This document shows, piece by piece, positions 1-30,203 of a stretch of 32,669 nucleotides of DNA (positions are counted from its first letter, which is position 1; the number at the start of each line of letters is the position of its first letter). The DNA lies in the IMG/VR virus record IMGVR_UViG_3300027769_000091, positions 1-32,669 of that record. One strand, given 5' to 3'. The notes under the pieces are model-generated. The model saw nothing but the letters and a program-made list of their open reading frames with translations, searched no databases and was not told the DNA's origin. Source of the DNA: a virus. Lineage: Duplodnaviria > Caudoviricetes. Position numbers and translations under genes: made by a program.

Positions 1-3000
1 GCGGCTACCTCCGAAGACGTGACCAAGGCCGAGGCTTTTGAAGACTCTTACGGCATCCTGCCCTACACGTCCGCCGGCCAGCTTACTGTCGACGCCAAAT
101 TCTCAATCAAGCAGAGCGGTGACTTCGGCACGCACCCGATACTCGGTATCCCGATCAACAAGAACGGCTCGGTGTCGCTCTACTTTCCCACCGACAACGC
201 CACCGCGCAGCTCGTACGCCGCGAGAAATTGCTGCGCGCATCAGACCCTTCCGCTACTCGGGTCTTCCTCACAAACGAATCCAGTGCTCCGAAGGTCGCT
301 GCAAACCCTGGCGATATCCAGCAGCCCATGGCCGGCGCGAACGTACTGGTCCAGGTAAACCCTGACCTCGTGCAGCTGCTCAAAGAGCACCCGGATGGCC
401 GTAAGGATTTCTTCATTCCGATCGCTGAAGGAGCTACCTTCAAAGCGAAGATGACAAAGCTATTCACGTTGAATGCGCCTAGAGACCAGGGGCTTCACTC
501 GGATCGCACTCTTGCTGAAATCAACGATGGCATCAGCGCGGCGGTTAATAGACTGCAGGCGGCCAGTACGCAAGCGCGTAAGGTGATTGTTTCGGCAGCA
601 CGCAAAGTTCTGCGAGCAGACCACAACGTAGGTACGTTGCTGGGTGAAAACGACAAACTCGCCAAGACTCGCACCGGCGACTACGGCATCGAGTACAACG
701 GTAAGCGTGTGTATTCGTTGGGCCTCGGCCTGGCCAGCGCGCAAAAGATCAACAACAAGCAGAAGCTCACGTCGTGCCCTCAGAGCGCGATCTGTGAAAG
801 CCTGTGCCTGGGAGAAACCTCTGGCCAGAATCTGTTGTACGGCGGCGTAGGCCAGTTCAGGTCTGGTCCGCGCCTGGCGCAGTACCTTAAAACTGAAGCC
901 ATGGTCGTCCACCCAGAAGAGTTTACCTCGGTTCTTTACGCAGAAATCGCGTCTTTCCGCTTGGCCATGATGAAGGAAGGCAAGCAGCCAACGGTGCGTT
1001 TGAACGTCACCAGCGACTTCGCGCCCAAGGTCTGGGAGCCACTGATCAAGGCGTTCCCTGATGTGATGTTCTACGACTACACCAAACTTGCCACGGACCC
1101 TATCGCTGAGAACCACCACCTGACCTACAGCTCCACCGGTGCGTCGCAAATAGTCGACGGCAAGCTGGTTGAGAACAAACTCAGCAACTGGCCGAAAATG
1201 GTACAGCGTCTGCGCGAAGGCAAGAACGTCGCCATGGCGTTCACCAGCAAAACCGACATGCCTGATTTCATCGTGGACGAAGCCACTGGCGAGCGGTTCC
1301 AAGTGTGGAACGGCGACAACTACGACGCACGCTTCTTGGATCCGAAACCTGGTGACCCGGCTAACAAATTAAACAAAGGCATGATCGTCGGTCTTACCAA
1401 CAAAGACCGTACCGGCGACGCGCAGACTGCTGCCGCACGTACCGACGGCTTCTTCATGGACTACGATCGCAAGCGCGACGGCGACACGCTGACTATCCGC
1501 GATCCTCGCACACTGGGGAGTGCTGCGTCGCGTCCGGTGAAAATACAGTTCAGCCGCAGCCAGAAAGAAACGTCCGGCGCCATCAAGGCCACCCCTGGCG
1601 TAGACATGGTGAGGATGGCTCGCCTGCTAGGTCCGCAGTTGTACGGAAACATGTCCGACATCGGGCTTGTAACCATTAAAGAAGTATTTCAGAACTCGTT
1701 TGACGCGCTGAAAGGGGCTATTCAAAAAGGCGACAAGACACGCGGCCTCATTGATGTGGAGGTGGACAGTTACGCCCGCACCATCACCATCACAGATGAC
1801 GGCACGGGCATGACGCCGGAGATTATCAACAAGGCGTTTCTCACCCTGGCGGGAACGTCGAAAGAAACCGACCGCGCTTCCGGTGGTCTCGGTATTGCTA
1901 AGATGCTGTTCCTGTTCGGCAACGAATCTTTGTCTCTGCGCACGGTACGCAACGGCGTGGAGAGCACGCTGTCTACTTCCGGTGCGGAACTGATGGCGTC
2001 GTTCTCGGACCCGGCTGTTGCTCCAAATATCCAGACTCGCCCCACCAGCGACCCCTCCGGGACTGCCGTCACGATCAAAATCCCGGAAACTTACACGGAC
2101 GAAAACGGGGAGGTTCAAAGTATAGACTTCCCTTACAAATGGAGTGCGGGGACTCTGCTGGAGTCCAGCCCACTGCTGGAGAACATAGAAGTTCGGTTGA
2201 ACGGAGAAACGCTTCCAATAGGAGCCAACTTCCCTGTGGATGACTACACCGTTCTGGCGAATGCCAAGTTCGCGTGGGGCAACATGCGCGTACTGGTGCG
2301 CCCCCGGAAGGCCAGCGAGTACGGCGAGAATATGACAGTGCTGTCAAACGGGCTGTATCAGTTTGGCGACACGCTGAAGAAAAACCCTCTTGATTTTTGG
2401 GGGCCAGCAGCGCCCTTCCAGTTTTACCTTAACATTGAGCCTACTGTCCCGGCGGACTCCCCACTGTACCCCATTGCACTTAACCGCAAGGGGTTTTCCA
2501 TGTCGGCAAAATCTGACTTTGAAGCACTGAAGAAGTACCTTAGTGTGCTGTACGCCAACAAAAACGACGCTGAAAGTGCGCAGTCTTTCGGGGAGCTAGA
2601 ACAGCTGTCCGAAGACGGCAAGACTTTCAAACGGATTAGCCTGGTCGTACCAGAGGCGGATCAGGGCAGCACGCTCGCGATAAACCCAGGGGACAAGGTA
2701 GAAGTCCGCGAAGGGCGCATGTACGTGAACAACCGGGAAATGCCGGAGATCACGAAAGAGTCGATGGCCGCACTGGTCAGAGACCCTGGAAAGTTTAAGA
2801 TCGACCCGGCTTTGATCGACCCGAGCCGCGTACTGGTTCACGACAATCTCACCCTTAGCGGGGTTCCCTTCAGAGAAGTGATGCGCGATTCTGTAGGCGA
2901 TGCCTTCGACGACTTTACGTTTGAGGTCGCGGACGTATTCAAGACGCTCCGGGACGCTACCGCAAAAGTCGGCGGTGCTAAATACTCGGACGTTTCAGAT

Positions 3001-6000
3001 GTTGCTGTTGGCGTCAGCTTTGACCTGGAGTATTACGGCGTCAACATCATGGTGCCGTTCCGGGCGATGATGATTAACCCGGCTTTCATTCGTGGAGAAG
3101 ATCCCGCCAAAGCAGCGCAGACCGTAGTTGGCACGATGATCCACGAGCTGGTTCACCACGCGGAGCGTAACCACAGTGAGACTGGATTTATTCCAGAGCT
3201 GCAGCGCATGTTCATGGAACTGTCCTTGTCGAGGGATTCAGAAGCTATTACCCGGCAGCTGCAGAATGTATTTAATAAATACCCGGATATAATGCGGGAA
3301 CTTAGGAGAATTCAAGACAATGAAAAAGAAAACCTCAAGCCCAAGGGCGTCCGACTCAAAGGTGACGCTGACACGACTGGTGTCGGCGGCATGGATGTCG
3401 GCCAAAAAGCCCGAGATGGTGCAAGCGCTGCTGCTAGGCTTTCTGCTCCCGGCGGAGCAAGAAGGGATGACAGCGACCTCCCCGGCATACGTCGAGCAGT
3501 TGAAGGCAGCGGTAGAAACCGCCCCTCTGGCGAAGAACGCAGAAGACCATCTTCGGCGGATGGCGGCTATGACCCAGGCCTAGCGTTCCGGGATCTGATC
3601 CCGCAGTTCAGCCGCGGCCAGAAAGACGTTCTCTCCAGAGAGCCAAAACTGGAAACCGCAGCTCAAGGAATCAAAGAAGGGACGGTAACCCGCGAACAAT
3701 ACGACGAGCTGGTCAACGCTCTAAAGCCGGTCACGCCGTATGAATCCGCTCCAAGTCCTGCCACAGAGGCGAAGATTCGGAGCGCGCTATCGGCTGACAA
3801 AGTTGACCGCATAGGCGCCCCCAGCAAAACACTCAAGGCCGGAGACCCTGTTGGCCTTCGACTGGATATCCCTGCATACGCCAACCACGGCGTGTGGGTA
3901 GTCTCCGTACACGAGCAGATCCCAGGCTTTGCTGCCGGCAAGTCCATCGGCTACGAAAGCGTGGCCTCGGTCACGAACCCCACTTTTGGCGTTGTTGAAA
4001 GCGCAGCGCTTAACATCGCTGCCGGGAAACCGAAAGCCACCATCGCGGTGATGAAAGGCGACTGGAAACCCGTAACTCCTAAGCAGGCCTCCGCAACTGC
4101 CAAACTGGCGCTCAAGTCCGACAACTGGATTCAGGTAGGCATGGACCCCACCAGGCATGCGTACTTTTACGACCGCGCCAGCATGGAGCCTGTTGTTTCA
4201 GCAGACGAAGCAATTCAGGTCGGGCCGCTCGTTCTTGCCAAGAACCCGGTGTACGGTAACAAAGAGGATTTTCGTTTTAGCCGCTCGCAAGGCGAAACGC
4301 CTAGCCAGCAACGCGGAATCAATGTTCGCAACGACGGCGATAACCTTTATGCCGATTTGATTGTGGATGGCGAGAAGACCATGGAGTCGCGTAACACCAA
4401 CAGCCTGCGTGCGTACGTTGGCCAGACCGTTGGAATTATTCGCACCGGCGAAGGACCGGCCAAGCTTATCGGCTCGGTCAAAATCGGAGAACCGATTGAA
4501 GTCGACGAACAGGAGTTCCGCGAGCTCGAGCCTGAGCACCTGGTGCCAGAGGGCTCAGCGTTTGACATCAAGCCCGGCAGCACAAAGTTTCTGTACCCAT
4601 TGACCGAAGCGCGGCGTTTTGATGAAGAGCGTGCCGTTGACTCGCGGGGTATCGTGGCGCGCAACGTGGCGTTCAGCCGCAGCCAGGAACCCACCGATAT
4701 CGAGCAGGCGCGGTTAAAGCGCTTCAGCCGTGCGTTCGGTGACGCCGTTCGCGAACGCGCCGGCCAACTCGCCGATTTGACCAACCGCCTCGCCGCAGAA
4801 GACAAGTACCTGGGCCTCGAAGTCGGAGACACGTTCCTCACGCAGAACCAGGATGGCGGGCGCTTCCGCCACCGCGTGCTGGCAAAGAGTGTGCTGCAAC
4901 GCAGGTCCGGCGAGTACGAGCTGAACGGAAAGAACTACACTCCTTCTCTGCGCGTGGAAACAATCGGGCCTGATGGCGAAGCGTCCACCGGCGACCTGAT
5001 CGTGGAGAAGTTGCGCGGCCGCGTCACTAAGATGGGCGGCCCTCGGTTCAGTCGCTCGCAGACCGACACGCCTGCGTTCAAGCGCTGGTTCGGTGATAGC
5101 AAGATTGTGGACGAGAACGGTGACCCAGTAATAATGGTTCACGCCTCCCCCCGCTCGGACATCTCTTCGTTCAAGCTTGGTGCAGATAACGGGGTCTGGT
5201 TTAGTCCATCCTTCGACACTTCTGAAGCTGATATAGTCGCGTCTGAAGGCCGAAAACTAATTTACAACCCTGATCCTAACAATTTTCCTGACGTTGCGGA
5301 AGGCATGACGTTTTACCCAGTTTATTTATCGATCAAGAACCCGGTACTTGACGACGATATGTTGACTGATTTTTATAACGGGGACATCACTGCAAGAGAA
5401 CTACTTGCCCAAGGTTTTGACGGCTTACTGTGGCCTGACGGTGTTGCGGTCGTTTTAAGTCCCACACAGATCACGTTCGCCATTGGCACCCCGGACGTCC
5501 GGTTCAGCCAGGCGCAGAAGTCCCCGCTCAAGCTTTACAGCGCGCTGGCCAAAGCCGTTGAGGCTGGCCCTGCTCGCGCGCCGAAGGACCAGTGGGCGAA
5601 CATCCTGCGCAAGCAGAAGTTCGTCACCGAAGAAGAGATCACCTGGACCGGTCTGGAAGACTGGCTCGAGATGCAGTCCGGGCAAGTGCCACGCGAAGCT
5701 GTTGCGGACTTCCTTGCGCAGAACGGTGTGCAGGTTGGTGAGGTCGTGTTGGGTGGGAGTACGCGGTACCCGCCGAACACTTTGATGCATCCGCAGTCTG
5801 GAGAGGTCGCCAGTGTTGAACAGTGGCGCGCGGACTTTGAAAGCATGGGCCGGGAAAACTGGTTTGGCCTACCCGAAGAAGAGACCGAAGATTTAGACTG
5901 GCAGATCAATTTGGTGGACGTTTCCGGCGATGAAATGTTCGGGTCTGAAACCCGCTTCGCACAGTACGTGCTGCCTGGTGGCCAGAACTACCGCGAGGTG

Positions 6001-9000
6001 CTGCTGACGCTGCCGACCGAGCAGCCGGACTTCAAGATCGACGACTTTATCGATGCTATGGCCGACAAGTACGGCCGTGAAAACATTTTTGATGAGTCGG
6101 GCAACATCGCCACCGTTAAAACCTCCTTCCCGAATATGCTGTCTGCAGAAGATCAGGCTGTGTATCGGAATATCCAACGCGAAAAGCCTAAGAAGTATCA
6201 GTCCTCCCACTGGGACGGCGTCCCCAACGTCTTGGCCCACGTCCGCATGAACGATCGCGTCGACGCCGATGGCGCGCGTGTGCTGTTCGTCGAAGAGCTG
6301 CAGTCGGACTGGGCGCAGGAAGGGCGGAAGATCGGTTTCGCTACAGGATCTTTGGCCGATGCCGAGATGGTAGCCACGATAAACAATTCCGCCAACGTGC
6401 CTTACTGGGAAATCAGTACAACCTCCGGTGATTTTGTCGCCAATGTGGTGGATGTCAGCACCAGAACGGGAACCCCAGAGCAAGCTATAACTGTTGCCAG
6501 AGAAATAGCGCGCCGCCGCGTGGACCGCCGGATACCAAAAGCGCCCTTCGTCCAATCCACCGACAGCTGGCTCCGCTTGGCGCTGAAGCGCGTCATCGCG
6601 ATGGCCGTCGAAGGCGGCTACGACAAGATCGCGTTCACCAACGGCCAGCAGAACGCAGAGCGGTACTCACTTGATAAAGAGCTGCGCGAGATCTCCTACG
6701 AGCCGGCCGGCGAAGGGCTTTATGAAATCAGCGCGACCAACCTTTCCGGCCGCGAAGTTATCAGCGAAGACGAAGTCACTTTGGACCGCATCGAAGAGCT
6801 GCTCGGAAAAGAGATCGCCGAAAAGATTTCGCGCGACGAAGGCGAACGCGAGGGGGGAGGCTACCGAGATTGGAGATACCTGCGGGGCCTTGACCTCAAG
6901 GTAGAAGCCAAAGGCATGCGCGCCTTCTACGACAACATCGTGCCGAAGACCCTGAATAAGCTGCTGCCGAAGATCGGTGGTGGGAAGGTGGAGCAGGTTA
7001 ATCTTGAATCCGACGAGGGCTCAAGCAAATACATCATCGACGCAGAGGACATCGGCGCCGACGAAGACTTTGAGCAAGAAGTCGTTATCCGTGATGAGAT
7101 GTCTTTGGAGGGGGTGGCTTCTTTCAACTCCATAGCTGAGGCTGACGCCTGGTTGGCTGATAACGACGTAGATGTCTCTGCGAAAATGCAGACCGGCTTC
7201 GCCGTCACCCGTGAGATGACCGACCAAGTGATGGACGCAGGTCTCCCACTCTTCAGCCGTCGTCAGAACATCTTCGGACAGCCAATGCCGGCGGGCACTT
7301 GGCAGGTTGGCGACAGTCGCATGGACGAGGTGATCTACTCCCTCCAAGACAAGCTGGTCGACACCAAGCGGGTGGTCGAAGCGATCGGCAATGTCGCCGA
7401 CAAGTTCGACGCCTACCTGCAAGAAACGCTCTACCACGGCAAGGTGTCTACCCGCACCACGGACTTCGCTGACAGCGAGCTGAAGCCCCTGATCGAAGCC
7501 ATGGGCAGGAACAAGGTCAAGATAGAAGACCTCGACGAGTACCTCCACAACCGCCACGCGGAAGAGCGCAACATCGCCATGGCGAAGCGCGACCCGAACC
7601 AGCGAGACGGGCTGTCCGGCATCACGACCGCTGACGCGAGGGCCTATTTGGCGGCCATCCCGTCTGCGCGCAGGGCACTCCTCGAAGGCCTGGCTCGCCG
7701 GGTGGACGCCATTACGGCCGGCACCCGCAACGCCCTGCTCAACGCCGGCTTGGAGTCGCAGGGGATGCTGGACGCTTGGGAGAACACTTACTCGGCGTAC
7801 GTTCCTCTCATGCGCGAAGAGCTGGACTACGATCCGGCCGGTGGCCCTGGCACTGGCGCCGGTTTCAACGTGCGCGGGGGCTCCTCTCGTCGCGCTGTGG
7901 GGTCGACCGACCGGAAGGTGGTAGACATCCTCGCCAACGTCGTGCTGCAGCGTGAGCGGGCGATCGTGAGGGCTGAGAAGAACCGGGTCAGCAAGGCGCT
8001 GTACGGCCTCGCGATCCAGAACCCTCTCCCGGAATTCTGGCTGCCGATCAACCTCGATGCGATGAAGGACCCGGCCGCTCTGCAGGCCGAGCTAATCGGG
8101 CTTGGGCTGTCCGTTGCTGACGCGCAGAACATCGCCCAGCAGCCCAAGGAGCGGGTCGTGGATCCGCGCACTGGCCTGACCACCGAACGGCCGAACCATC
8201 GCCTGCTAACATCTGCGAACGTGATCACCGCGAGGGTCAACGGGAAAGATCGGTTCTTGGTCCTGAACCCGCAAAACCCCCGCGCGGAGCGGATGGCGCT
8301 GGCGCTGAAGAACCTAGACGTGGATCATCTCGGCCGGGCGCTGGGCCTGATCGCGCAGGGCACCCGCTGGTTCGCCAGTGTGAATACCCAGTACAACCCG
8401 ATCTTCGGCGTGATCAACTTCCTGCGAGACGTGCAGGGCGGTCTGCTGAACCTGTCGTCCACCGAGCTCAAGGGTAAGCAGGGGGCGGTCTTGGCCGGCA
8501 CCGTGCCAGCCTTGCTTGGAATATCCGCAGGCCTCCGCACGCGCGGGGCCACCGGTCAGTGGGCGCAGCTCTGGCGTGAGTTCCAGGAGGTCGGCGGTCA
8601 GACCGGCTACCGTGACCAGTTCAGCCAGAGCGAAGAGCGCGCAAAAGCGCTTGAGAGCGAGCTCAAGGCCCTGTCCAATGGCACCGCCAAGAAGGCCGGC
8701 AAGGCTGTCGGGAAACTGCTGTCTGACTACAACACGACCATGGAGAACGCGGTCAGGCTTTCAGCCTACAAGGCCGGCCTGGACAAGGGCATGAGCAAGG
8801 AGCGTGCTGCAGCGCTGGCGAAGAACCTCACCGTTAACTTCAACAAGAAGGGCCAAGTCGCAACGCAGATGGGCGCCCTGTATGCGTTCTTCAATGCCAG
8901 CGTGCAGGGCACGGCCCGTCTGTTGCAGACCCTGTCCGGGCCTGCCGGAAAGAAGATCATCTACGGAGGGCTGCTGCTTGGCTCGGCTCAAGCGATGCTG

Positions 9001-9921
9001 ATGGCGATGGCGGGCTTCGACGAGGAAGAACCGCCGGAGTTCGTGCGAGAGCGGAACCTGATCATCCCGACCGGCGACGGCAAATACTTAACCCTACCCA
9101 TGCCGCTCGGTTTCAACGTGATCCCCAACTTCAGCCGGATCGTGACCGAGTGGGCGCTGTCGGGCTTTGAGCGCACCCCCCAGCGGGTGGCGCAGATCGC
9201 GACCTCGTTCTTCGAGATGTTCAACCCGATCGGCAGCGCAGGTCTGTCCGTTCAGACCTTGGCGCCGACGGTGGTGGATCCTCTGGTGGCGATAAGCGAG
9301 AACAGGGACTGGACTGGCACTCCGATCGCGCGTGAGGACTTCAACAGCCTTGACCCGACACCCGGCTACACCAGGGCGAAGGACACTGCGAGCGAGTTCA
9401 GCAAGGCGCTGGCTGAGTTCCTGAACCTGGCCAGCGGCGGCACCGAGTTTGCGCCAGGCGTGATCAGCCCGACTCCGGACCAGCTGGACTACCTGATCGG
9501 GCAAGTCACTGGCGGCATCGGGAGAGAGTACCTGAAGGCCGAGCAGACGGTGACCGCGTACTTGACCGGTGAGGAGCTGCCGACCTACAAGATCCCTCTC
9601 GTCGGCCGGTTCGGCGGCAACACCTCGGGAAGCTCTGCGGTGTCGTCACGTTTCTACGAATCGATCCGTCGGATGAACGTCCACAACAACGAGCTCGGCG
9701 GCCGACGGGAAGCAGGCAGGCCGGTGGGCGAGTACCTGCGCGAGAACCCGGAAGCGCGGCTGGCGCCCCAAGCCCTGCGAGCCTACCGGCAGGTGCAGGA
9801 TCTCCGCCGGCGGAAGCGAGAGATGCTGGAGCGCGATGCTTCAAAAGAGTCGATCCGCCGGATTGAGGCGCAGATCACTCAGCGGATGCAGCAGTTCAAC
9901 GATCGACTGGATCGTATGTGA
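1..9921 (+). CDS. Giant polyvalent phage protein (virion-associated/injected type), 5'-truncated; multiple enzymatic domains plus a C-terminal LPD38-like region
   Basis: Frame 1 is open from base 1, so the GTG at 19 is probably not the true start. Recognisable blocks: Gp88-like (CPQSAICESLC, RLNVTSD, FYDYTK, NGDNYDARFLD); GHKL ATPase (KEVFQNSFDA, DDGTGM, GGLGIAK, SGT); HELVH zincin motif at 3142-3156; ASCH (YADLIVDGEKTMESR); ART-PolyVal-like (TPAFKRWFGDSKIVDENGDP, PVYLSIKNP, GFDG); LPD38-like C-terminus (LPMPLGF, ENRDWTGTPI, PDQLDYLIGQVTGGIG). Confidence 0.85.
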   Translation, partial: AATSEDVTKAEAFEDSYGILPYTSAGQLTVDAKFSIKQSGDFGTHPILGIPINKNGSVSLYFPTDNATAQLVRREKLLRASDPSATRVFLTNESSAPKVAANPGDIQQPMAGANVLVQVNPDLVQLLKEHPDGRKDFFIPIAEGATFKAKMTKLFTLNAPRDQGLHSDRTLAEINDGISAAVNRLQAASTQARKVIVSAARKVLRADHNVGTLLGENDKLAKTRTGDYGIEYNGKRVYSLGLGLASAQKINNKQKLTSCPQSAICESLCLGETSGQNLLYGGVGQFRSGPRLAQYLKTEAMVVHPEEFTSVLYAEIASFRLAMMKEGKQPTVRLNVTSDFAPKVWEPLIKAFPDVMFYDYTKLATDPIAENHHLTYSSTGASQIVDGKLVENKLSNWPKMVQRLREGKNVAMAFTSKTDMPDFIVDEATGERFQVWNGDNYDARFLDPKPGDPANKLNKGMIVGLTNKDRTGDAQTAAARTDGFFMDYDRKRDGDTLTIRDPRTLGSAASRPVKIQFSRSQKETSGAIKATPGVDMVRMARLLGPQLYGNMSDIGLVTIKEVFQNSFDALKGAIQKGDKTRGLIDVEVDSYARTITITDDGTGMTPEIINKAFLTLAGTSKETDRASGGLGIAKMLFLFGNESLSLRTVRNGVESTLSTSGAELMASFSDPAVAPNIQTRPTSDPSGTAVTIKIPETYTDENGEVQSIDFPYKWSAGTLLESSPLLENIEVRLNGETLPIGANFPVDDYTVLANAKFAWGNMRVLVRPRKASEYGENMTVLSNGLYQFGDTLKKNPLDFWGPAAPFQFYLNIEPTVPADSPLYPIALNRKGFSMSAKSDFEALKKYLSVLYANKNDAESAQSFGELEQLSEDGKTFKRISLVVPEADQGSTLAINPGDKVEVREGRMYVNNREMPEITKESMAALVRDPGKFKIDPALIDPSRVLVHDNLTLSGVPFREVMRDSVGDAFDDFTFEVADVFKTLRDATAKVGGAKYSDVSDVAVGVSFDLEYYGVNIMVPFRAMMINPAFIRGEDPAKAAQTVVGTMIHELVHHAERNHSETGFIPELQRMFMELSLSRDSEAITRQLQNVFNKYPDIMRELRRIQDNEKENLKPKGVRLKGDADTTGVGGMDVGQKARDGASAAARLSAPGGARRDDSDLPGIRRAVEGSGRNRPSGEERRRPSSADGGYDPGLAFRDLIPQFSRGQKDVLSREPKLETAAQGIKEGTVTREQYDELVNALKPVTPYESAPSPATEAKIRSALSADKVDRIGAPSKTLKAGDPVGLRLDIPAYANHGVWVVSVHEQIPGFAAGKSIGYESVASVTNPTFGVVESAALNIAAGKPKATIAVMKGDWKPVTPKQASATAKLALKSDNWIQVGMDPTRHAYFYDRASMEPVVSADEAIQVGPLVLAKNPVYGNKEDFRFSRSQGETPSQQRGINVRNDGDNLYADLIVDGEKTMESRNTNSLRAYVGQTVGIIRTGEGPAKLIGSVKIGEPIEVDEQEFRELEPEHLVPEGSAFDIKPGSTKFLYPLTEARRFDEERAVDSRGIVARNVAFSRSQEPTDIEQARLKRFSRAFGDAVRERAGQLADLTNRLAAEDKYLGLEVGDTFLTQNQDGGRFRHRVLAKSVLQRRSGEYELNGKNYTPSLRVETIGPDGEASTGDLIVEKLRGRVTKMGGPRFSRSQTDTPAFKRWFGDSKIVDENGDPVIMVHASPRSDISSFKLGADNGVWFSPSFDTSEADIVASEGRKLIYNPDPNNFPDVAEGMTFYPVYLSIKNPVLDDDMLTDFYNGDITARELLAQGFDGLLWPDGVAVVLSPTQITFAIGTPDVRFSQAQKSPLKLYSALAKAVEAGPARAPKDQWANILRKQKFVTEEEITWTGLEDWLEMQSGQVPREAVADFLAQNGVQVGEVVLGGSTRYPPNTLMHPQSGEVASVEQWRADFESMGRENWFGLPEEETEDLDWQINLVDVSGDEMFGSETRFAQYVLPGGQNYREVLLTLPTEQPDFKIDDFIDAMADKYGRENIFDESGNIATVKTSFPNMLSAEDQAVYRNIQREKPKKYQSSHWDGVPNVLAHVRMNDRVDADGARVLFVEELQSDWAQEGRKIGFATGSLADAEMVATINNSANVPYWEISTTSGDFVANVVDVSTRTGTPEQAITVAREIARRRVDRRIPKAPFVQSTDSWLRLALKRVIAMAVEGGYDKIAFTNGQQNAERYSLDKELREISYEPAGEGLYEISATNLSGREVISEDEVTLDRIEELLGKEIAEKISRDEGEREGGGYRDWRYLRGLDLKVEAKGMRAFYDNIVPKTLNKLLPKIGGGKVEQVNLESDEGSSKYIIDAEDIGADEDFEQEVVIRDEMSLEGVASFNSIAEADAWLADNDVDVSAKMQTGFAVTREMTDQVMDAGLPLFSRRQNIFGQPMPAGTWQVGDSRMDEVIYSLQDKLVDTKRVVEAIGNVADKFDAYLQETLYHGKVSTRTTDFADSELKPLIEAMGRNKVKIEDLDEYLHNRHAEERNIAMAKRDPNQRDGLSGITTADARAYLAAIPSARRALLEGLARRVDAITAGTRNALLNAGLESQGMLDAWENTYSAYVPLMREELDYDPAGGPGTGAGFNVRGGSSRRAVGSTDRKVVDILANVVLQRERAIVRAEKNRVSKALYGLAIQNPLPEFWLPINLDAMKDPAALQAELIGLGLSVADAQNIAQQPKERVVDPRTGLTTERPNHRLLTSANVITARVNGKDRFLVLNPQNPRAERMALALKNLDVDHLGRALGLIAQGTRWFASVNTQYNPIFGVINFLRDVQGGLLNLSSTELKGKQGAVLAGTVPALLGISAGLRTRGATGQWAQLWREFQEVGGQTGYRDQFSQSEERAKALESELKALSNGTAKKAGKAVGKLLSDYNTTMENAVRLSAYKAGLDKGMSKERAAALAKNLTVNFNKKGQVATQMGALYAFFNASVQGTARLLQTLSGPAGKKIIYGGLLLGSAQAMLMAMAGFDEEEPPEFVRERNLIIPTGDGKYLTLPMPLGFNVIPNFSRIVTEWALSGFERTPQRVAQIATSFFEMFNPIGSAGLSVQTLAPTVVDPLVAISENRDWTGTPIAREDFNSLDPTPGYTRAKDTASEFSKALAEFLNLASGGTEFAPGVISPTPDQLDYLIGQVTGGIGREYLKAEQTVTAYLTGEELPTYKIPLVGRFGGNTSGSSAVSSRFYESIRRMNVHNNELGGRREAGRPVGEYLRENPEARLAPQALRAYRQVQDLRRRKREMLERDASKESIRRIEAQITQRMQQFNDRLDRM

Positions 9922-13096: not shown

Positions 13097-13326
13097 AGCA
13101 TGAACACCGGAGTCATCTCGCCCATGTTGGACCCGGCGACGTTGAAGTCGAAGAATTCGATTGCGTCCTCGAAGCCAATGTCTTCTGCCAGGATCTCGAT
13201 CACCTTCTCGTAGCTGTACACCACGACGTAAGTGCCGCAGCGGTTGGCCACGCCGAGGATCGCGTCGTCGTATCCGTCGGCGAACAGGAGCTCTTCGTAT
13301 TGCTCGATCAACTCTTCTCGGGTCAT
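13093..13326 (-). CDS. Small acidic phage hypothetical protein
   Basis: 77 aa, overlapping its neighbours on both sides; FADGYDDAILG...VVYSYEK...EDAIEFFDFN motif. Confidence 0.75.
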   Translation of the reverse strand: MTREELIEQYEELLFADGYDDAILGVANRCGTYVVVYSYEKVIEILAEDIGFEDAIEFFDFNVAGSNMGEMTPVFML

Positions 13327-13568
13327 AAGCTGTTCGGTATAAGGTAGCCCCGCTTCGGGGCGATAGTGGCTCTTTGCTTCATGTTGCTGCGGCTTTGAAT
13401 CCCAAGCGGTACGCTGACGGTCATCTCAATCGCCGACACGCCGAACGGGATTTTCTGGATCTTGCCGCCCTTTTTTAAAAAAGCCGCGATCTGTTCGCGT
13501 ATTTTTTCCGGGGTGAACTCAGAAGGCCGCGATACGGATTCTTCTTCGAGCGGTTGTTCGTCGCTCAT
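13323..13568 (-). CDS. Small protein with a SutA-like RNA-polymerase-binding motif
   Basis: Acidic N-terminus followed by REQIAAFLKKGGKIQKIP, which resembles the Pseudomonas SutA core (EEFL.RGGKVQEI). Confidence 0.55.
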   Translation of the reverse strand: MSDEQPLEEESVSRPSEFTPEKIREQIAAFLKKGGKIQKIPFGVSAIEMTVSVPLGIQSRSNMKQRATIAPKRGYLIPNSL

Positions 13569-15608: not shown

Positions 15609-16751
15609 TCAGTCCTCCTGGGACTCATCAGTGAAGTAACCCAGCGGCTCAATCGCGGGGCGTTTATCGGACTCCGGGGCGAGCGTAGGCTTGCCCTGCG
15701 GCTTCTCGATCAGTTTGCCGAGAACCTCGGCGAATTTTTTCTTGCCGACCAGCTTTTCCATGGCGGTGATACCGAGCAGGCTTCGCTCGTAGATCAGCAC
15801 CTCTTCAACGCCTGACGCAATGATCGCCTTCGCGACCTCGCCCTCGTCGGTGTACTTGCGGTTGCTTCTTCCCTCGACCAGCTTCCAGCCTGGCAGCGAG
15901 CCGCCGGTGGTCATCCGCTTGAGAGCCCACGCCTTGCTGTCGTTGAGCCACTTGATCACCTCGTCCGCTCGTAGCAGGACCTGTGACATCTGCGCCGGCG
16001 TCAGCTCATCGGCAGGCAGCAGCGCGAACGACGAGGTGACCAGCTCCTGCGCAGAAGCGTTGCGTGCCGGGCAGGTGAACCTGGCGCGGCAGAAGTAGTT
16101 CCCGCAGTGTTCCCCTGCGACCCGCTCGCCTTCGCCTTCCCAAGCGATCAAGGCCTTCGGCACGACGACCTGTTCGGCCCACTGCAGCAGCTCTTCAACG
16201 GTCAGCTCTTCGCTGCCCCAGTTGTCCATCCGCGGTTGCAAGACGTGCGTCCGGACGCGCTTGATGTCGTACAGCATCGACAGCTCGTTGTAGGCGCCGA
16301 GGCCGTAAAGACGCATCTGGCTGTTCTCCTGCGCCGACACGAAGGTCCCCTTGCCGTATTTCAAATCCGCCACCTCGACCAGGTCGTCGGTGATGATGAC
16401 AAGGTCGCCGGTGCCGAACCCTTCCGGCACCCACGGGCTGTAGTCGAGCCGGCGTTCGATCAGGATCACCGGGTCCTTGCAGCGGTCGTAGGCAGCGCCG
16501 ATCAGGGCGATAGCGTAATTGACCGCCGCCTGGACATGTTCAGCCATTTCCTTGCTCGCCAGCACGGTTGGCGATGATAAACCGGAGACGTGATCCGTCA
16601 TCACTTGCGCAAACAGCTCGTGCGCCAGCGTGCCTTCCGCTGCGAACGGGCTGTCCTCGTCCGGGATTTCGTCCTCCAGCTGCGCGCTGGGCGTGCAGAC
16701 CAGCCACTTGCCGCTGGAAGAGGCGCTCAGTTTGGCGTGCTTACGATCCAT
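15609..16751 (-). CDS. DUF2800 family PD-(D/E)XK (Cas4-like) nuclease
   Basis: HAKLSASSSGKWLVCTPS, AAEGTLAHE, GFGTGD, VADLKYGKG, NSQMRLYGLG, HC..FCRA...C and GWKLVEGRSNR; the usual neighbour of DUF2815 and Pol A genes. Confidence 0.9.
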   Translation of the reverse strand: MDRKHAKLSASSSGKWLVCTPSAQLEDEIPDEDSPFAAEGTLAHELFAQVMTDHVSGLSSPTVLASKEMAEHVQAAVNYAIALIGAAYDRCKDPVILIERRLDYSPWVPEGFGTGDLVIITDDLVEVADLKYGKGTFVSAQENSQMRLYGLGAYNELSMLYDIKRVRTHVLQPRMDNWGSEELTVEELLQWAEQVVVPKALIAWEGEGERVAGEHCGNYFCRARFTCPARNASAQELVTSSFALLPADELTPAQMSQVLLRADEVIKWLNDSKAWALKRMTTGGSLPGWKLVEGRSNRKYTDEGEVAKAIIASGVEEVLIYERSLLGITAMEKLVGKKKFAEVLGKLIEKPQGKPTLAPESDKRPAIEPLGYFTDESQED

Positions 16752-20559: not shown

Positions 20560-21868
20560 AGCGTTTCAGGTAGAGGCGCTGCAGCGCGTTGCGCAGCAGA
20601 ACCTGTACCTGGCTGCAAAGCCTGGGTCGGGCAAGACCGCTGTCGCGGTCCACGCTGCGCACCGTGCGCTGTACGACACGTTCACGGCCAGACGGGTGCT
20701 GGTGGTCACCCCCAAGCGGGTCGTGCCACAGTTCGCATCTGAGGCGGCGTCGTGGAAGTTGCCGTTGACGTTTGCGGAGTGCATGGGCGGCGAGCCGCAG
20801 CGTCTTGATGCGCTGGCGGCCCAGACTGATGTCCTCGTGACCAGCCATGAGCACTTTCCGTGGCTGTGCCGGGCGATCCCTGCCCGGCAGTGGGACTTCG
20901 ACCTGGTGGTGTTCGACGAAGCCGGCCGGCTGAAAGATCACAAGTCGACCGGCTTCAAGGCGATGCGGGCGATTATGAAAAAGCGTAAGCCGAGGCTGCT
21001 GTTGATGAGCGGCTCACCGCGGCCTGGGAGCGCGCATGAGCTGTTCGCGCCGGTGACCCTGCTGGATGGAGGGGCGCGACTGGGAACGACCTTGGGGCCG
21101 TTCAGGGCGGCGTATCTTGAACCGCACAAGGTAGACCGGAACACGGGTCGGGTGTTCAGCTGGAGGTTGCGGCAGGGGATGGAGGGCGCGCTGTACGGCC
21201 GGATTGCTGACCTGTACTACGCGGTCAGCCCGGATCTGGGGCTCAAGTACACCGAGATCGATGTTCCGGTCACCTTGCCTCCGGCGGTTCGGCAGGAGAT
21301 CAACCGCATGCTGACCGGCCTCACCGCCGACTGGGGGCTGGACGAGATCACGGCAGGCAACAACGCGGTTGCGATCGGGAAGGCGTTGCAGCTGGCCAGC
21401 GGGACGGTTTTCAACGATGGCGGGGGAGTGACCCACGTCCACGATGCGAAGATCGACGCGTTGCGGGAGCTGATTGAGCAGATGGACGGCGAGCCGCTGA
21501 TGGTCGCGACCTGGTGGACGCATGAGAGGGAGAGGTTGCTGCAGGCGTTTCCTGGGATGGTGGACATAACGACAGAGGGGGGCCTTGCAGCGGCTAAAGC
21601 CGGGAAGGCCCCCCTTGCGTTGATCCACCCGCAGTCGGCAGGGCACGGGATCGACGGGCTGCAGCATCACTACTCGGCGCTGGCGTACTACACGCTGCCG
21701 CACTCGTACGATTACTACAACCAGTTGCTGCGGAGGATCGTCAGAAGCGGGCAGACGGAGACGGTGAGGGTGTTCAGGTTGCTGGCAGGCCCGGACGTCC
21801 GTGTCCGAGATTCGCTGCAGGTCAAGATGGCCGGGCAGGAGGGGTTCTACGATTTTTTGACCGGCTGA
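20543..21868 (+). CDS. SNF2-like (SF2) helicase
   Basis: LRAFQ, Walker A KPGSGKT, VVFDEAG, LMSGSP, HPQSAGHGIDGLQ, QLLRRIVRSGQ. Confidence 0.9.
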   Translation: MSRNLRAFQVEALQRVAQQNLYLAAKPGSGKTAVAVHAAHRALYDTFTARRVLVVTPKRVVPQFASEAASWKLPLTFAECMGGEPQRLDALAAQTDVLVTSHEHFPWLCRAIPARQWDFDLVVFDEAGRLKDHKSTGFKAMRAIMKKRKPRLLLMSGSPRPGSAHELFAPVTLLDGGARLGTTLGPFRAAYLEPHKVDRNTGRVFSWRLRQGMEGALYGRIADLYYAVSPDLGLKYTEIDVPVTLPPAVRQEINRMLTGLTADWGLDEITAGNNAVAIGKALQLASGTVFNDGGGVTHVHDAKIDALRELIEQMDGEPLMVATWWTHERERLLQAFPGMVDITTEGGLAAAKAGKAPLALIHPQSAGHGIDGLQHHYSALAYYTLPHSYDYYNQLLRRIVRSGQTETVRVFRLLAGPDVRVRDSLQVKMAGQEGFYDFLTG

Positions 21869-22187
21869 CCGCGGATTGACTCACGCCGACCGCCTTGCAG
21901 GCCCGGTAGGCAGTCCAGCCGTGTTCTTTCATGAGCCGGATCGCTTGTTGTGTCCGGCTGACCGCGGTCGCAACGGGCGCCTCGATCTCCGACTCCGGGG
22001 GCGACACTTCGTATACGAGGTCGGTGTCCCAGTCGCCGGGATTTTCGGCCCACACGCGAGCGCGCAGCTTGCCGTTGGGCATCACTTCAGCCGAGTAGGC
22101 CTCGGCCCTGCCAGCGGCCATGTGCGCTTCCAGCTGTTGGCGGACAGCAGGCGCCCATGCCAGATTGAGGAACTCATCTTTTTTCAT
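21822..22187 (-). CDS. Hypothetical protein with a C-terminal helix-turn-helix
   Basis: QQAIRLMKEHGWTAYRACKAVGVSQSAVSR; last gene of the leftward cluster. Confidence 0.65.
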   Translation of the reverse strand: MKKDEFLNLAWAPAVRQQLEAHMAAGRAEAYSAEVMPNGKLRARVWAENPGDWDTDLVYEVSPPESEIEAPVATAVSRTQQAIRLMKEHGWTAYRACKAVGVSQSAVSRSKNRRTPPARPS

Positions 22188-22381
22188 AACGGCACCGCGT
22201 TTTTGATGTGCCGGCCTTTGCCGGAGCCGTCAAAACTGACTGCCTCGGCTTTCAGTTCGGCAGTGATGCCACGCTTGGCAGCGCGATTAATTATCGTGGC
22301 CGGCTTGGCCGTGCCGGCGATCCGAAACTGAACGAACTGCCCAGATTCTGTTTTTCCAGAGCAAAAAGTTGTGTAACGCAT
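22184..22381 (-). CDS. Hypothetical protein (65 aa)
   Basis: ATG is preceded by CAGGAGGAC and lies directly downstream of hammerhead A. Confidence 0.7.
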   Translation of the reverse strand: MRYTTFCSGKTESGQFVQFRIAGTAKPATIINRAAKRGITAELKAEAVSFDGSGKGRHIKNAVPL

Positions 22382-22393
22382 GCGGTCCTCCTG

Positions 22394-22448
22394 GGACTCA
22401 TCAGTACCGGCAGTTACCGGCAGACGCAGCGGGTGCTGCGTTTCGTCC
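22394..22448 (-). ncRNA. Hammerhead ribozyme A (type II)
   Basis: Minus strand: GGAC GAAA C GCAGC-ACCC-GCUGC GUC^ UGCCGG-UAACUG-CCGGUA CUGAUGA GUCC. All core nucleotides and three stems are present. Predicted cut between 22423 and 22422. Confidence 0.92.
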
Positions 22449-22766
22449 TTACGAGGTCTTGCGAGCCGAGACCTTGATCGTGGCGAAGGCCTCGCCCGTC
22501 GAGCTGTGGGCGGTGACCAGCTGACGGCTGGGGTTGAAATGTTCGGCGATGGCGCGCCAGTCGATGCTGAGGCGGCCGTCCGACCAGGCGATGCTGGCGC
22601 GGTACTGCTGGCCGTCGATTGCTTCGTAGCCGCAGCCGGAAAGCATGGCCTTGATTTCTTTTTCGCGGATTTGCAAGTCCGCGATGCGGGCTTTCAGGCC
22701 GCCGAGTTCGTCGACCATGGCGATCAGGTCGGCGTCAGTGATGATGGTTTTGAGTTGTGCGGTCAT
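22449..22766 (-). CDS. Hypothetical protein (105 aa)
   Basis: ATG 22766 follows CAGGAGGAC; the TAA stop abuts hammerhead A. Confidence 0.75.
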   Translation of the reverse strand: MTAQLKTIITDADLIAMVDELGGLKARIADLQIREKEIKAMLSGCGYEAIDGQQYRASIAWSDGRLSIDWRAIAEHFNPSRQLVTAHSSTGEAFATIKVSARKTS

Positions 22767-22788
22767 GCTATGTCCTCCTGGGACTTGT

Positions 22789-22843
22789 GGACTCATCAGT
22801 GCCGGCGTTACCGGTCAGACGCAGCGGGTGCTGCGTTTCGTCC
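22789..22843 (-). ncRNA. Hammerhead ribozyme B (type II)
   Basis: Minus strand: GGAC GAAA C GCAGC-ACCC-GCUGC GUC^ UG(A)CCGG-UAACG-CCGGCA CUGAUGA GUCC. Predicted cut between 22818 and 22817. Confidence 0.92.
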
Positions 22844-23668
22844 TTATGCGGCTTTGAGGTCGGCCATTTTCTCGGCCAGCGACCAGAGCGCGCGGTTCAG
22901 CTTCACGTCCTGCTGGATGCCGGTCACCGGACGCGTGGTCATCCGGCGGCCGGTTGTTGCGCGGCCACGCTGGCCGCCCTTGAGCAGGTTTTCCTGGATC
23001 ACGTTGTAGGTGTTCCAGAGGGTCGGCGCCGCGTCGTCGTTGCGGTGCGGTCGGATCACCTGTGCTGCTGACACCGGCGCTGCGTCGTCCCAGCGCAGCT
23101 TGATGGCCTCGTCAGCGAGCAGCAGTTGTTCGGGGCGGGACAGTTCGATGCCCTTGAAGGCTTCCTTGCGGTGTTCTATCTCCTGAACGTTGCGCAGGAC
23201 CTCGTAGCTGCCTTCGATGACGTTTCCGACTACGTCGCCGGAGTGCCGGATTTTGACGTTGTTGTGAACGTCACCGGCGATCAGGCCGTTCGAGCAAACA
23301 AACCGAAAATAGCCGGCTAGCAGGTGGTAGCTAGACGCCCCGTCGTGGCTGTTGATCAGGATGATCTCCGGCACTTCCCCGCTGCCGGCGTCGATCAGGC
23401 TGCGGTGGCGCAGGCGGACCATGTGGCGAGTGAATTCCCGTTTGCTGGCATCGCGGGTCATCGACTGGCGCACCTCATACGGGGCGAACCCTTCGCGCCA
23501 CATCCCGCGCAAGATGTCGATCGTCGGGATGTGAGTGTACCGCTCGGAGCGGCTGGCGTGGGCTTCGGTGGCCAGCACTGATGGAGCATAGCGGGCGAAT
23601 TGCTCGCCCGTGATTGGGGTCTGGCTGCGGAACGTGTTGTCTTTGGTGCTGGATGCGTAGCGGATCAT
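22844..23668 (-). CDS. DUF932 (YafZ/YfjQ/YubP-like) protein
   Basis: HASRSERYTHIPT, KREFTRHMVRLR, EIILINSHDGASSY, FRFVCSNGL, LWNTYNVIQENL and DVKLNRALW. Confidence 0.92.
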   Translation of the reverse strand: MIRYASSTKDNTFRSQTPITGEQFARYAPSVLATEAHASRSERYTHIPTIDILRGMWREGFAPYEVRQSMTRDASKREFTRHMVRLRHRSLIDAGSGEVPEIILINSHDGASSYHLLAGYFRFVCSNGLIAGDVHNNVKIRHSGDVVGNVIEGSYEVLRNVQEIEHRKEAFKGIELSRPEQLLLADEAIKLRWDDAAPVSAAQVIRPHRNDDAAPTLWNTYNVIQENLLKGGQRGRATTGRRMTTRPVTGIQQDVKLNRALWSLAEKMADLKAA

Positions 23669-23698
23669 GTGCGTGCCCTCCTGGGGCTGGGTTGTGAT

Positions 23699-23749
23699 GG
23701 ACTCATCAGTGCCGGCGTTACCGGTCAGACGCCTTACGGCGTTTCGTCC
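23699..23749 (-). ncRNA. Hammerhead ribozyme C (type II)
   Basis: Minus strand: GGAC GAAA C GCC-GUAA-GGC GUC^ UG(A)CCGG-UAACG-CCGGCA CUGAUGA GUCC. Stem III differs from A and B but still pairs and has a GNRA loop. Predicted cut between 23728 and 23727. Confidence 0.92.
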
Positions 23750-23991
23750 TGTATCGCGACTTTCCCGACCAGCTTGATTGCGCCGAGTTCGCGAGCGGCG
23801 ACACCGCCCACGTTGTAGGCCTGCCGCTTGGCGCCTGTCCGGCTGCCGTAGCCGGAATTCCCGTTGCCGCCGATGTCGATGACTTCGACGACTCTGCCCC
23901 GCTTGGGCGAGAGCAACTCAAGGCGGGCGGTGACTGCCTCTGAACGCCAGCCGGCGGGGGTGAATACTGCGGTGTTGTATTTCACGAGCAT
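23734..23991 (-). CDS. Hypothetical protein (85 aa)
   Basis: ATG follows CAGGAGGAC; its last codons and TAA lie inside hammerhead C. Confidence 0.7.
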   Translation of the reverse strand: MLVKYNTAVFTPAGWRSEAVTARLELLSPKRGRVVEVIDIGGNGNSGYGSRTGAKRQAYNVGGVAARELGAIKLVGKVAIQDETP

Positions 23992-24011
23992 TTTGTCCTC
24001 CTGGGACTGGG

Positions 24012-24236
24012 TTACGCGTAATTGTTTCGGATTAGAAAAGCGATTAATTCAAAGTGGCGGCCCTCTTGGTACTTGCCGCCCTGCGGCCAGATGTAGCTGA
24101 CCTCTTCGCCGTCGCGCAGGATAGTGCCAACCAATTTTTCAGCGCGGGCTTCGCGCTTTTCAAGGCGGGTCAGCGCCCTCTCTTCTGCTTTGAGGCGACG
24201 GCTGATTCTGTTATCAAGGAACTGTTCGATTGTCAT
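24012..24236 (-). CDS. Hypothetical protein (74 aa), first gene of the leftward cluster
   Basis: ATG 24236 (MTIEQFLD) follows CAGGAGGAC. The longer ORF-track version runs through non-coding RNA. Confidence 0.7.
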   Translation of the reverse strand: MTIEQFLDNRISRRLKAEERALTRLEKREARAEKLVGTILRDGEEVSYIWPQGGKYQEGRHFELIAFLIRNNYA

Positions 24237-24253
24237 GCTGTCCTCCTGGGACT

Positions 24254-24306
24254 CTTGTTTCGGCCTTCTGGGCCTCGTCAGTAGCGCAGCGTCAGCGCTA
24301 TACAAG
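24254..24306 (-). ncRNA. Hammerhead ribozyme D (type III)
   Basis: Minus strand: CUUG UA^ UAGCGC-UGACGCU-GCGCUA CUGACGA GGCC-CAGAA-GGCC GAAA CAAG. GUA cleavage triplet; predicted cut between 24301 and 24300. Confidence 0.92.
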
Positions 24307-24408
24307 TTGCCGGTTTGTCCTCTGAGGCATCCGCCCCGGCTCCCGGTGTTTGATCTGCTCCGGTCAGCAGTGGTTCGTCGTCGTGAGAGGCCATTTCCGC
24401 ACGCCTGA

Positions 24409-24424
24409 TACTTGATGTCAAGTA
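24409..24424. promoter_or_regulatory. Inverted repeat overlapping a perfect -35 hexamer in the divergent early/late control region
   Basis: TACTTGA-TG-TCAAGTA. Minus-strand TTGACA at 24421-24416 points into the ribozyme cluster. The -10 at 17 bp spacing (GGAAAT) is poor. Confidence 0.45.
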
Positions 24425-29479: not shown

Positions 29480-29835
29480 TGGCAACAGTACAGTTTTCGA
29501 GCACCCGCGAAGGTGCAATCGTGGTGACGTGGGCAGCGATGGCCGGCACAGACAACGGCTCGCCGTTTCGAGTTCCGTCCTCGGCGGATCTGACGTTCCA
29601 GGTGGCCGGCACGTTTGGCGGAGCAACCTGCACGCTGCAGGGGTCCAACGACGGCACAAATTGGCACACGTTGACAGCAAAGAGCGGGACATCCGGCATG
29701 GCGTACACCTCCGCGGCGGTCCACTCATGCAACGAAACGCCCCTGTTCGTTCGCCCAAACATCACCGGCGGCACGGGCAGCAGCATCACAGTTACTTTGG
29801 CTGTATTCCCACGATACGCCAAAACGGGGTACTGA
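29479..29835 (+). CDS. Hypothetical beta-rich (possibly virion) protein
   Basis: Gly/Thr-rich; QVAGTFGGATCTLQGSNDGTNW. Confidence 0.7.
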   Translation: MATVQFSSTREGAIVVTWAAMAGTDNGSPFRVPSSADLTFQVAGTFGGATCTLQGSNDGTNWHTLTAKSGTSGMAYTSAAVHSCNETPLFVRPNITGGTGSSITVTLAVFPRYAKTGY

Positions 29836-29837
29836 GC

Positions 29838-30203
29838 ATGAAACACACGGGGATGATGGTCGCGATGCTGTTCCTGGCCCGCGACCTGACGCACAGGCAG
29901 CACTTACGGACCACGTCCTACGCCGAGCACATGGCGCTGGCAGGGTTCTACGAGGGGGTGATCCCTCTCGTCGACGGTTTCGTCGAGGCTTACCAGGGGC
30001 GGTTCAACGAGCTACTTGACATCCCCCTCGGGGACAACGACTTCGAGGGCGAGATCGCCGACGTGCTGGAGCAGCAGATGTCTTGGATCGAGGACAACCG
30101 GGAAAAGGTCTGCCCCCGGAAAGAGACTGCTTTGAACAACGCTTTGGACGAGATCGTGACCCTGTATCAGAGCACGCTCTACAAGCTCCGGTTCTTGGCT
30201 TGA
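29838..30203 (+). CDS. Ferritin-like four-helix protein (DUF5856-like)
   Basis: Start ATG 29838; THRQHLRTTSYAEHMAL..FYE...D.FVEAYQG...LNNALDEI......LYKLRFL. Confidence 0.75.
   Translation: MKHTGMMVAMLFLARDLTHRQHLRTTSYAEHMALAGFYEGVIPLVDGFVEAYQGRFNELLDIPLGDNDFEGEIADVLEQQMSWIEDNREKVCPRKETALNNALDEIVTLYQSTLYKLRFLA

Follow-up and report, generated by a model that had tools for sequence, protein, structure and literature searches.

We analysed a DNA stretch of 32,669 nucleotides (nt), virus record IMGVR_UViG_3300027769_000091 of IMG/VR (hereafter, the window), in which six small minus-strand genes form a run between the helicase and packaging genes. In order of transcription these genes encode proteins of 74, 85, 274 (a DUF932 protein), 105, 65 and 121 amino acids (aa), and four hammerhead motifs, designated A, B, C and D, sit among them. 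Judging from the sequence, the four boundary hammerheads probably cut the operon message into linear pieces, which would be mRNAs with hairpin ends. An initial annotation of the locus had taken the released gene units to be candidate circular mRNAs, a reading that we find weakly supported.

Each hammerhead would fold locally during transcription and then cleave. Cleavage at D would trim a leader from the message and free it as a small RNA, and cleavage at C, B and A would part a two-gene piece of 573 nt, single-gene pieces of 910 nt and 395 nt, and a last piece. After the type II cut, the new 5' end would carry a stem I hairpin with a 5'-hydroxyl (5'-OH), and the 3' end would consist of stem III bearing a cyclic phosphate. 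A 5'-OH and terminal hairpins resist RNase E, and protected ends also resist 3' exonucleases; such ends may protect or tune each mRNA separately, giving every gene's message its own lifetime. The same repeats are also likely sites of crossover, by which genes would be gained, lost or reordered.

The arrangement has already been published and this locus is a further case. Perreault et al. (2011, PMC3088659) described clustered hammerheads that flank single genes in prophages, and proposed gene-length mRNA processing. As in those arrays, type II hammerheads occur here in series, with single genes or short variable blocks between them; the present array, however, is in an uncultured phage. The idea of circles is also in print, as the same report raised spliced or circular products as possible and stated that none were detected (data not shown).

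Hammerhead motifs at the gene boundaries

A structure descriptor identified four hammerheads in the window, each with a score of at least 15; dinucleotide-resampled windows, of which 100 were scanned, yielded 0.07 matches on average, all of them scoring below 14. All positions in the operon are given for the minus strand. Motif D is of type III (24252..24308, predicted cut 24301/24300) and was also matched by the Rfam family RF00008 (31 bits, E 0.006). The other three are of type II: A (22394..22449, predicted cut 22423/22422) and B (22789..22844, predicted cut 22818/22817) were found by the descriptor and by RF02276 (30.4 bits, E 0.019, and 24.7 bits, E 0.59, respectively), and C (23699..23750, predicted cut 23728/23727) by the descriptor. 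Each of the four lies directly ahead of a ribosome-binding site. The descriptor detected no plus-strand hammerhead in the window, and the genes are single-copy.

Motifs A, B and C each have the type II topology that the initial annotation had assigned to them, in the order GGAC-GAAAC-stem III-GUC, cut, stem I hairpin, CUGAUGA-GUCC; C17 is at 22423 (A), 22818 (B) and 23728 (C). Under the core rule for this type (CUGANGA, GAAA and an NUH triplet), all three have CUGAUGA, GAAAC and GUC. Stem I is closed, as is stem III, and stem II is open, with 7/4/6, 7/4/6 and 7/4/4 pairs in A, B and C, respectively. The topology, core and cleavage triplet are shared with RF02276, and three type II copies in relatives of this phage (loci L007 and L004) score above the gathering score of that family, at 37.7-41.4 bits, with L003 falling just short at 36.6.

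Two positions outside the search pattern are also conserved among 156 phage-contig copies with GGAC/GUCC, namely A before GGAC (152/156) and U at 1.7 (148/156). They match the Hoogsteen U7-A contact that typifies fast hammerheads (bioRxiv 2022.04.26.489422). By inspection, A, B and C have no clear pseudoknot joining stems I and II. They appear to differ from the consensus reported in PMC3088659 in lacking its loop I-tail pseudoknot and seem to rely on the U-A contact, whereas the L004 and L007 relatives appear to carry a pseudoknot of that type. We infer that the motifs of the operon would be catalytically active. Arrays of this kind cleave in vitro and in E. coli (PMC3088659), and in D. vulgaris the free cyclic-phosphate and 5'-OH ends of type II hammerheads associated with prophages were recovered by cyPhyRNA-seq (Olzog et al. 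2021, PMC8782182); both precedents count for processing into linear pieces.

Predicted released units and their ends

Between predicted cuts C and B lies a unit of 910 nt (22818..23727), and between predicted cuts B and A one of 395 nt (22423..22817), the sizes that had been proposed earlier. Both would begin with stem I-CUGAUGA-GUCC and finish with GGAC-GAAAC-stem III-GUC, and the 5' GUCC and 3' GGAC can pair. The initial annotation had further inferred that this pairing can rebuild a full hammerhead, which could then ligate its own ends into a circular mRNA. A rebuilt core would indeed lack nothing, as the conserved A and the U of stem I would both be part of it. The complementarity, which had been taken to point to circles, arises because A, B and C are near-identical copies (across the cut, B and C are identical over 5 + 30 = 35 nt, and A and B over 29 + 2 = 31 nt), and any piece between two copies holds both halves. 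Complementary ends are therefore automatic, are irrelevant to joining by a ligase, and are likely a by-product of a ribozyme cassette having been copied between gene boundaries. Two of the four downstream pieces in the window are closable in this way. Owing to the same identity, crossing over of the DNA or a switch of template within the repeat would yield the same sequence as either predicted junction.

Conservation in relatives of this phage

Relatives were mapped from IMG/VR and metagenome contigs and all belong to one clade. The DUF932 gene occurs in 14 distinct loci, of which two were left out because of contig ends; one of the 12 assessed is identical to the window. A type II hammerhead is directly upstream in 12/12 and downstream in 6/12. 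In five of the six loci lacking the downstream hammerhead, the stop passes directly into the next coding region. In L004 (3620-3660) a bare Shine-Dalgarno (SD) sequence with no hammerhead follows DUF932, while in L321 a hammerhead precedes the homologous next gene. Rfam revealed no other ribozyme class downstream of DUF932 in L003, L004, L005, L007, L008, L009 and L010. The 105-aa gene, in 11 distinct loci, has a type II hammerhead directly upstream in four, a type III in one and none in six. Its unit is closable by map reading in eight of the 11; L006 and L297 start with a type III motif, and L309 has a cross match of 1 base pair (bp). Both genes are bracketed in the window as had been described, but two-sided bracketing is unconserved for either of them, and no unit with ribozymes on both sides is conserved as it is in retrozymes.

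The type III motif is the first ribozyme of the operon in all 10 distinct relatives that have one. It has no upstream gene to release, which counts for processing into linear pieces. On these maps each independent ribosome-binding site tends to have a ribozyme of its own, as opposed to each gene having a pair. What genes lie between the cassettes, and in what order, varies in nearly every relative, and the flanked genes are variable as in the prophage arrays.

Compatibility between neighbouring ribozymes

For a wider comparison, 342 loci were assembled; part of the set was collected with the GGAC/GUCC pattern and is biased to that extent. Among adjacent type II pairs, 83/127 are fully cross-compatible, and 37/127 would form at most 2 bp (33 of them one or none). 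In 21 arrays of at least three hammerheads, 41 of 71 adjacent pairs are compatible, against 41.9 after the order was shuffled (P 0.72), and stem II classes are mixed in 13 of these arrays. Compatibility instead tracks overall ribozyme identity (20/21 at 75% or above, 39/74 below). An SD sequence and a start codon follow within 80 nt in 144/185 phage type II hammerheads (a count with no shuffle control), and 42/122 type II motifs stand alone, in that a search for hammerheads gave no second one within 1.5 kb. GGAC/GUCC was considered as a general type II consensus and rejected, as it occurs in 6/89 of the general-pattern set. Several loci (L038/L039, L189-L191, L082, L070 and L027) are phage arrays of five to nine type II hammerheads whose stems II are of mixed kinds, incompatible with one another; such long arrays are useful natural controls for the circle idea.

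Folding of ribozymes and units

Folding was carried out with ViennaRNA, whose models ignore ribosomes and tertiary contacts. In a nascent-RNA snapshot, native stem II formed with a probability (P) of 0.98 in B, 0.51 in C and 0.13 in A; in the full 160-nt context the values were 0.66, 0.01 and 0.55, respectively. For B and C in the snapshot, native stem II is far likelier than the end-to-end stem II of the units, which reached 0.0001 (910 nt) and 0.04 (395 nt). Forcing the full rebuilt hammerhead cost 5.7 and 2.1 kcal/mol, and synonymous codon shuffles closed as easily or better in 18/18 and 93/150 cases for the 910-nt and 395-nt units, respectively, so the coding sequences give no sign of being tuned for closure. 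Within the 395-nt unit, the local SD hairpin of the 105-aa gene (22772..22784) competes for both closure arms (P 0.32, for its GGAC with the ribozyme GUCC, and 0.18). Of the proposed pairing and ligation of ends, then, the core is possible but the fold is predicted to be rare and is not favoured over shuffled sequences.

RNA data

Of five candidate RNA runs, two contained a small proportion of the words, and three runs were examined. One freshwater metatranscriptome (X1) contains the phage at an identity of at least 99%, in 24 contigs over 20 kb, and its cover of the operon is confined to 23326-23535 and 23523-23715, within the DUF932 region, at a depth of 6-8. No back-joint was present in the assembled contigs of the three runs; one of these runs holds the phage, and in it neither junction is bridged. 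The second X1 contig ends 12 nt before cut C, and the contig of a relative in run X2 ends inside the type III core. As these ends fall at different places, in one study each and inside repeats, neither is taken as evidence. Nothing of the phage was found in run X3.

Several points weigh against processing into linear mRNAs. The Rfam scores of A, B and D are below the gathering scores (37, 37 and 48.5 bits), and C is unlisted. The U of the tertiary contact is at 1.7 in A only; in B and C it is at 1.8, with a bulged A. Native stem II is weak for C in the full context and for A in the snapshot. In the general-pattern set, 22/28 within-array pairs are compatible compared with 24% of random between-locus pairs, which either selection for closure or shared descent would produce, descent being favoured by the absent effect of order and by the dependence on identity. 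The relatives, as a single clade, are non-independent evidence. The benefit of splitting the message is inferred, and to Weinberg et al. (2019, PMC6765202) the role that these ribozymes play is unresolved.

Possible joining by a host ligase

A host RtcB-type ligase might join the unit ends, with the complementarity of stem II uninvolved, such that tandem type II hammerheads make selected early genes into lasting, translated circular mRNAs that matter for expression. We regard this as unlikely. The predicted products would carry 5'-OH and cyclic-phosphate ends, which are RtcB substrates as the initial annotation had noted, and SD, open reading frame and stop codon are all within each unit. In circular folds, stem II has a P of 1e-5 (910 nt) and 0.003 (395 nt), which would make re-cutting slow, and RtcB-made circles could last; where the junction did refold, it would cleave the circle again. 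A precedent is that of retrozymes, whose monomers self-ligate at 1-3% and are circularised at 30-80% by RtcB in vitro (Cervera and de la Pena 2020, PMC7229834). Like retrozymes and viroid-like RNAs, the present array has tandem hammerheads that would free a monomer with such ends. These RNAs, on the other hand, have type I or III ribozymes, a repeated and mostly non-coding unit, demonstrated circles and a protein ligase (PMC7229834), whereas the units here are different genes. Nor do the data indicate a repeated, self-propagating unit, as the window has single-copy genes and no plus-strand hammerhead, and the 342 loci have no chimeric DNA junction.

In E. coli, an engineered mRNA flanked by ribozymes was made circular and gave translation (Filko and Zhang 2025, PMC12628768), and this Tornado-type construct resembles the present units in having a ribozyme-flanked ribosome-binding site, open reading frame and stop, with RtcB-compatible ends (here predicted). 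Tornado was also used in E. coli in a report (PMC10729303) whose available text does not verify circles. The contig, which is 58% complete, has no RtcB gene, and both unit ends are at the bases of hairpins with no ligation stem linking them. A Tornado-type design discards the catalytic cores and builds in a ligation stem, while here the whole core would stay on the unit. The unconserved bracketing and the undetected circles of the 2011 arrays argue in the same direction. No report of a natural circular mRNA from a DNA phage was found in the open-access literature; Lee et al. (bioRxiv 2022.07.19.500677) note a single circular contig with a pistol ribozyme, a double-stranded DNA phage segment that is left unresolved. 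If true, ligation would make this locus a natural counterpart of the engineered ribozyme-RtcB circular mRNA, and any circles that accumulated would represent circular mRNAs made naturally by a DNA phage.

Shine-Dalgarno hairpins and possible translational control

A covarying 4-bp hairpin around CAGGA, with the SD sequence in it, accompanies each independent gene start of the operon; in the family it is formed at 49/52 in-operon CAGGAG sites against 1/5 outside. Five paired variants of the arms occur (GUCC/GGAC, GACC/GGUC, GCCC/GGGC, AUCC/GGAU and ACCC/GGGU), and the commonest arms are identical to those of stem II. In the window, the hairpin of the 74-aa gene is GUCC-CAGGA-GGAC (24240..24252), that of DUF932 is a compensatory variant, GCCC-CAGGA-GGGC (23675..23687), and that of the 85-aa gene (23995..24007) is at a boundary with no ribozyme. 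In the hairpin after A (22385-22397), the 5' arm is the GUCC of A's stem II. The element is a candidate translational operator or recombination handle.

As an operator, it could be part of a translational control in which the ribozyme fold, a terminating ribosome and the SD hairpin compete, and in which cleavage switches access to the SD, possibly through a Csr/Rsm-like protein on the CAGGA loop. The sharing of GUCC between A and the hairpin is consistent with this, as are the positions of the upstream stop codons, all of which overlap ribozymes: 23734-23736 lies in loop III of C, and 22844-22846 and 22449-22451 include the conserved A before stem II of B and A, respectively; in the case of B, this is the last A of the UAA that ends DUF932. 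Likewise, 121 of the 169 upstream stops of phage type II hammerheads are 5-10 nt before G12. A GGA in a hairpin loop overlapping the SD, as expected of Csr/Rsm sites, is present at the same 49/52 sites. The sites of CsrB read CAGGA(U/A/C)G and lie in hairpin loops (PMC5027483), whereas the flank here is CAGGAGG, and Pfam gave no CsrA match among the 33 window proteins. In the folding models, moreover, cleavage at A, B or C leaves the SD as accessible as it was, and the hairpin is also present at genes with no ribozyme, making such a control improbable.

Proposed recombination between cassettes

The cassettes of ribozyme and SD hairpin could also be kept mainly as DNA recombination handles for early genes, with cleavage tolerated and nearly neutral. 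Cassette gene order and content differ in nearly all relatives: DUF932 precedes the 105-aa gene in the window, which is the opposite of the order in 10 other distinct loci with both, and L010 (2612-2680) lacks the 74-aa gene exactly between two SD repeats. An exact 21-nt copy of A's 3' half and the SD hairpin is present at 15612-15632 (minus strand), where the DUF2800 exonuclease gene, which contains it, ends, and ahead of ssb; it has neither stem I nor stem III and is not a ribozyme by the descriptor. Comparable crossover points exist in T4-type phages, whose PeSL cassettes are expression cassettes that recur between small, variable early genes, although these are promoter stem-loops and differ from the ribozyme cassettes here. 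Recombination alone, however, would not need a catalytic core and tertiary-contact positions that are invariant while the stems vary, and no DNA chimeras of the halves of A, B and C were found in the 342 loci. We consider it very unlikely that the cassettes are kept mainly for this purpose.

Closure by the unit's own rebuilt hammerhead is highly improbable, for although its core would be complete, most adjacent pairs are compatible and the three stems II of L007 have all changed together and remain cross-compatible, compatibility follows ribozyme identity and not adjacency, the end pairing is rare, costly and contested by the SD hairpin, and self-ligation reached just 1-3% in retrozymes.

Leader RNA

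A conserved leader of 71 nt (24302..24372), which would be released if D cleaves, is found ahead of D in 10 distinct relatives, and in 10/10 it is followed by the type III hammerhead sequence. It consists of a 5-bp hairpin, an AAA linker, a small variable hairpin and two to four GGA motifs, and the 6-nt loop of the hairpin could pair with a downstream CCGG. The order of these elements resembles that of a pistol ribozyme, but Rfam gave no match to the leader at E ≤ 10. This leader RNA and the SD hairpin are each a lead in their own right. Scanning gave no clear terminator or promoter. A -35-like hexamer missed by the promoter scan, TTGACA (24416..24421), is a candidate for the operon promoter, as TTGAC[A/G] is at the equivalent position in 10/10 distinct leaders, with no good -10 in the window copy.

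Genomic context

The source is a linear virus record with genes for terminase, portal, capsid, DNA polymerase A, primase and helicase, and the four ribozymes and six genes are assigned to a phage because the same contig encodes terminase, portal, capsid and DNA polymerase. The search for cultured close relatives gave none, the matches being two of 53 nt in Streptomyces phages, and the DNA polymerase is below 60% identity.

Within the operon, the product of the 74-aa gene (24012..24236) matches phrog_16256 (unknown function). The 85-aa gene (23734..23991) is the one whose stop codon is inside loop III of C. The DUF932 gene (22844..23668) is assigned by Pfam PF06067 (E 2.4e-43), and a literature look-up yielded no function for the family. 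The protein of the 105-aa phage gene (22449..22766) has no match in Pfam, PHROG or NCBIfam, and its Atlas neighbours are viral hypothetical proteins. The 65-aa gene (22184..22381) overlaps the start of the last gene of the operon, with no ribozyme at that boundary; this last gene (121 aa, 21822..22187) has a weak Pfam match to the helix-turn-helix domain HTH_23 (E 9.9e-05, below the cut-off).

Three other proteins of the window were noted. A polyvalent protein of 3300 aa (19-9921, plus strand) has GP88-like, HATPase-like and LPD38 domains. An 81-aa protein (13323-13568, minus strand) has a SutA RNA-polymerase-binding domain (Pfam E 3.8e-10) and is a possible phage transcription modulator. Among the head genes, a DUF5856/phrog_858 protein (29529-30203, plus strand) is annotated as a starvation-inducible regulator.

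Implications

The comparative result points to 5'-end processing over circles, in that the ribozyme follows the downstream ribosome-binding site and neighbouring ribozymes are often incompatible. With four ribozymes, two closable pieces and two non-closable ones in a single construct, this locus is a compact test case for the role of ribozymes at phage gene boundaries.

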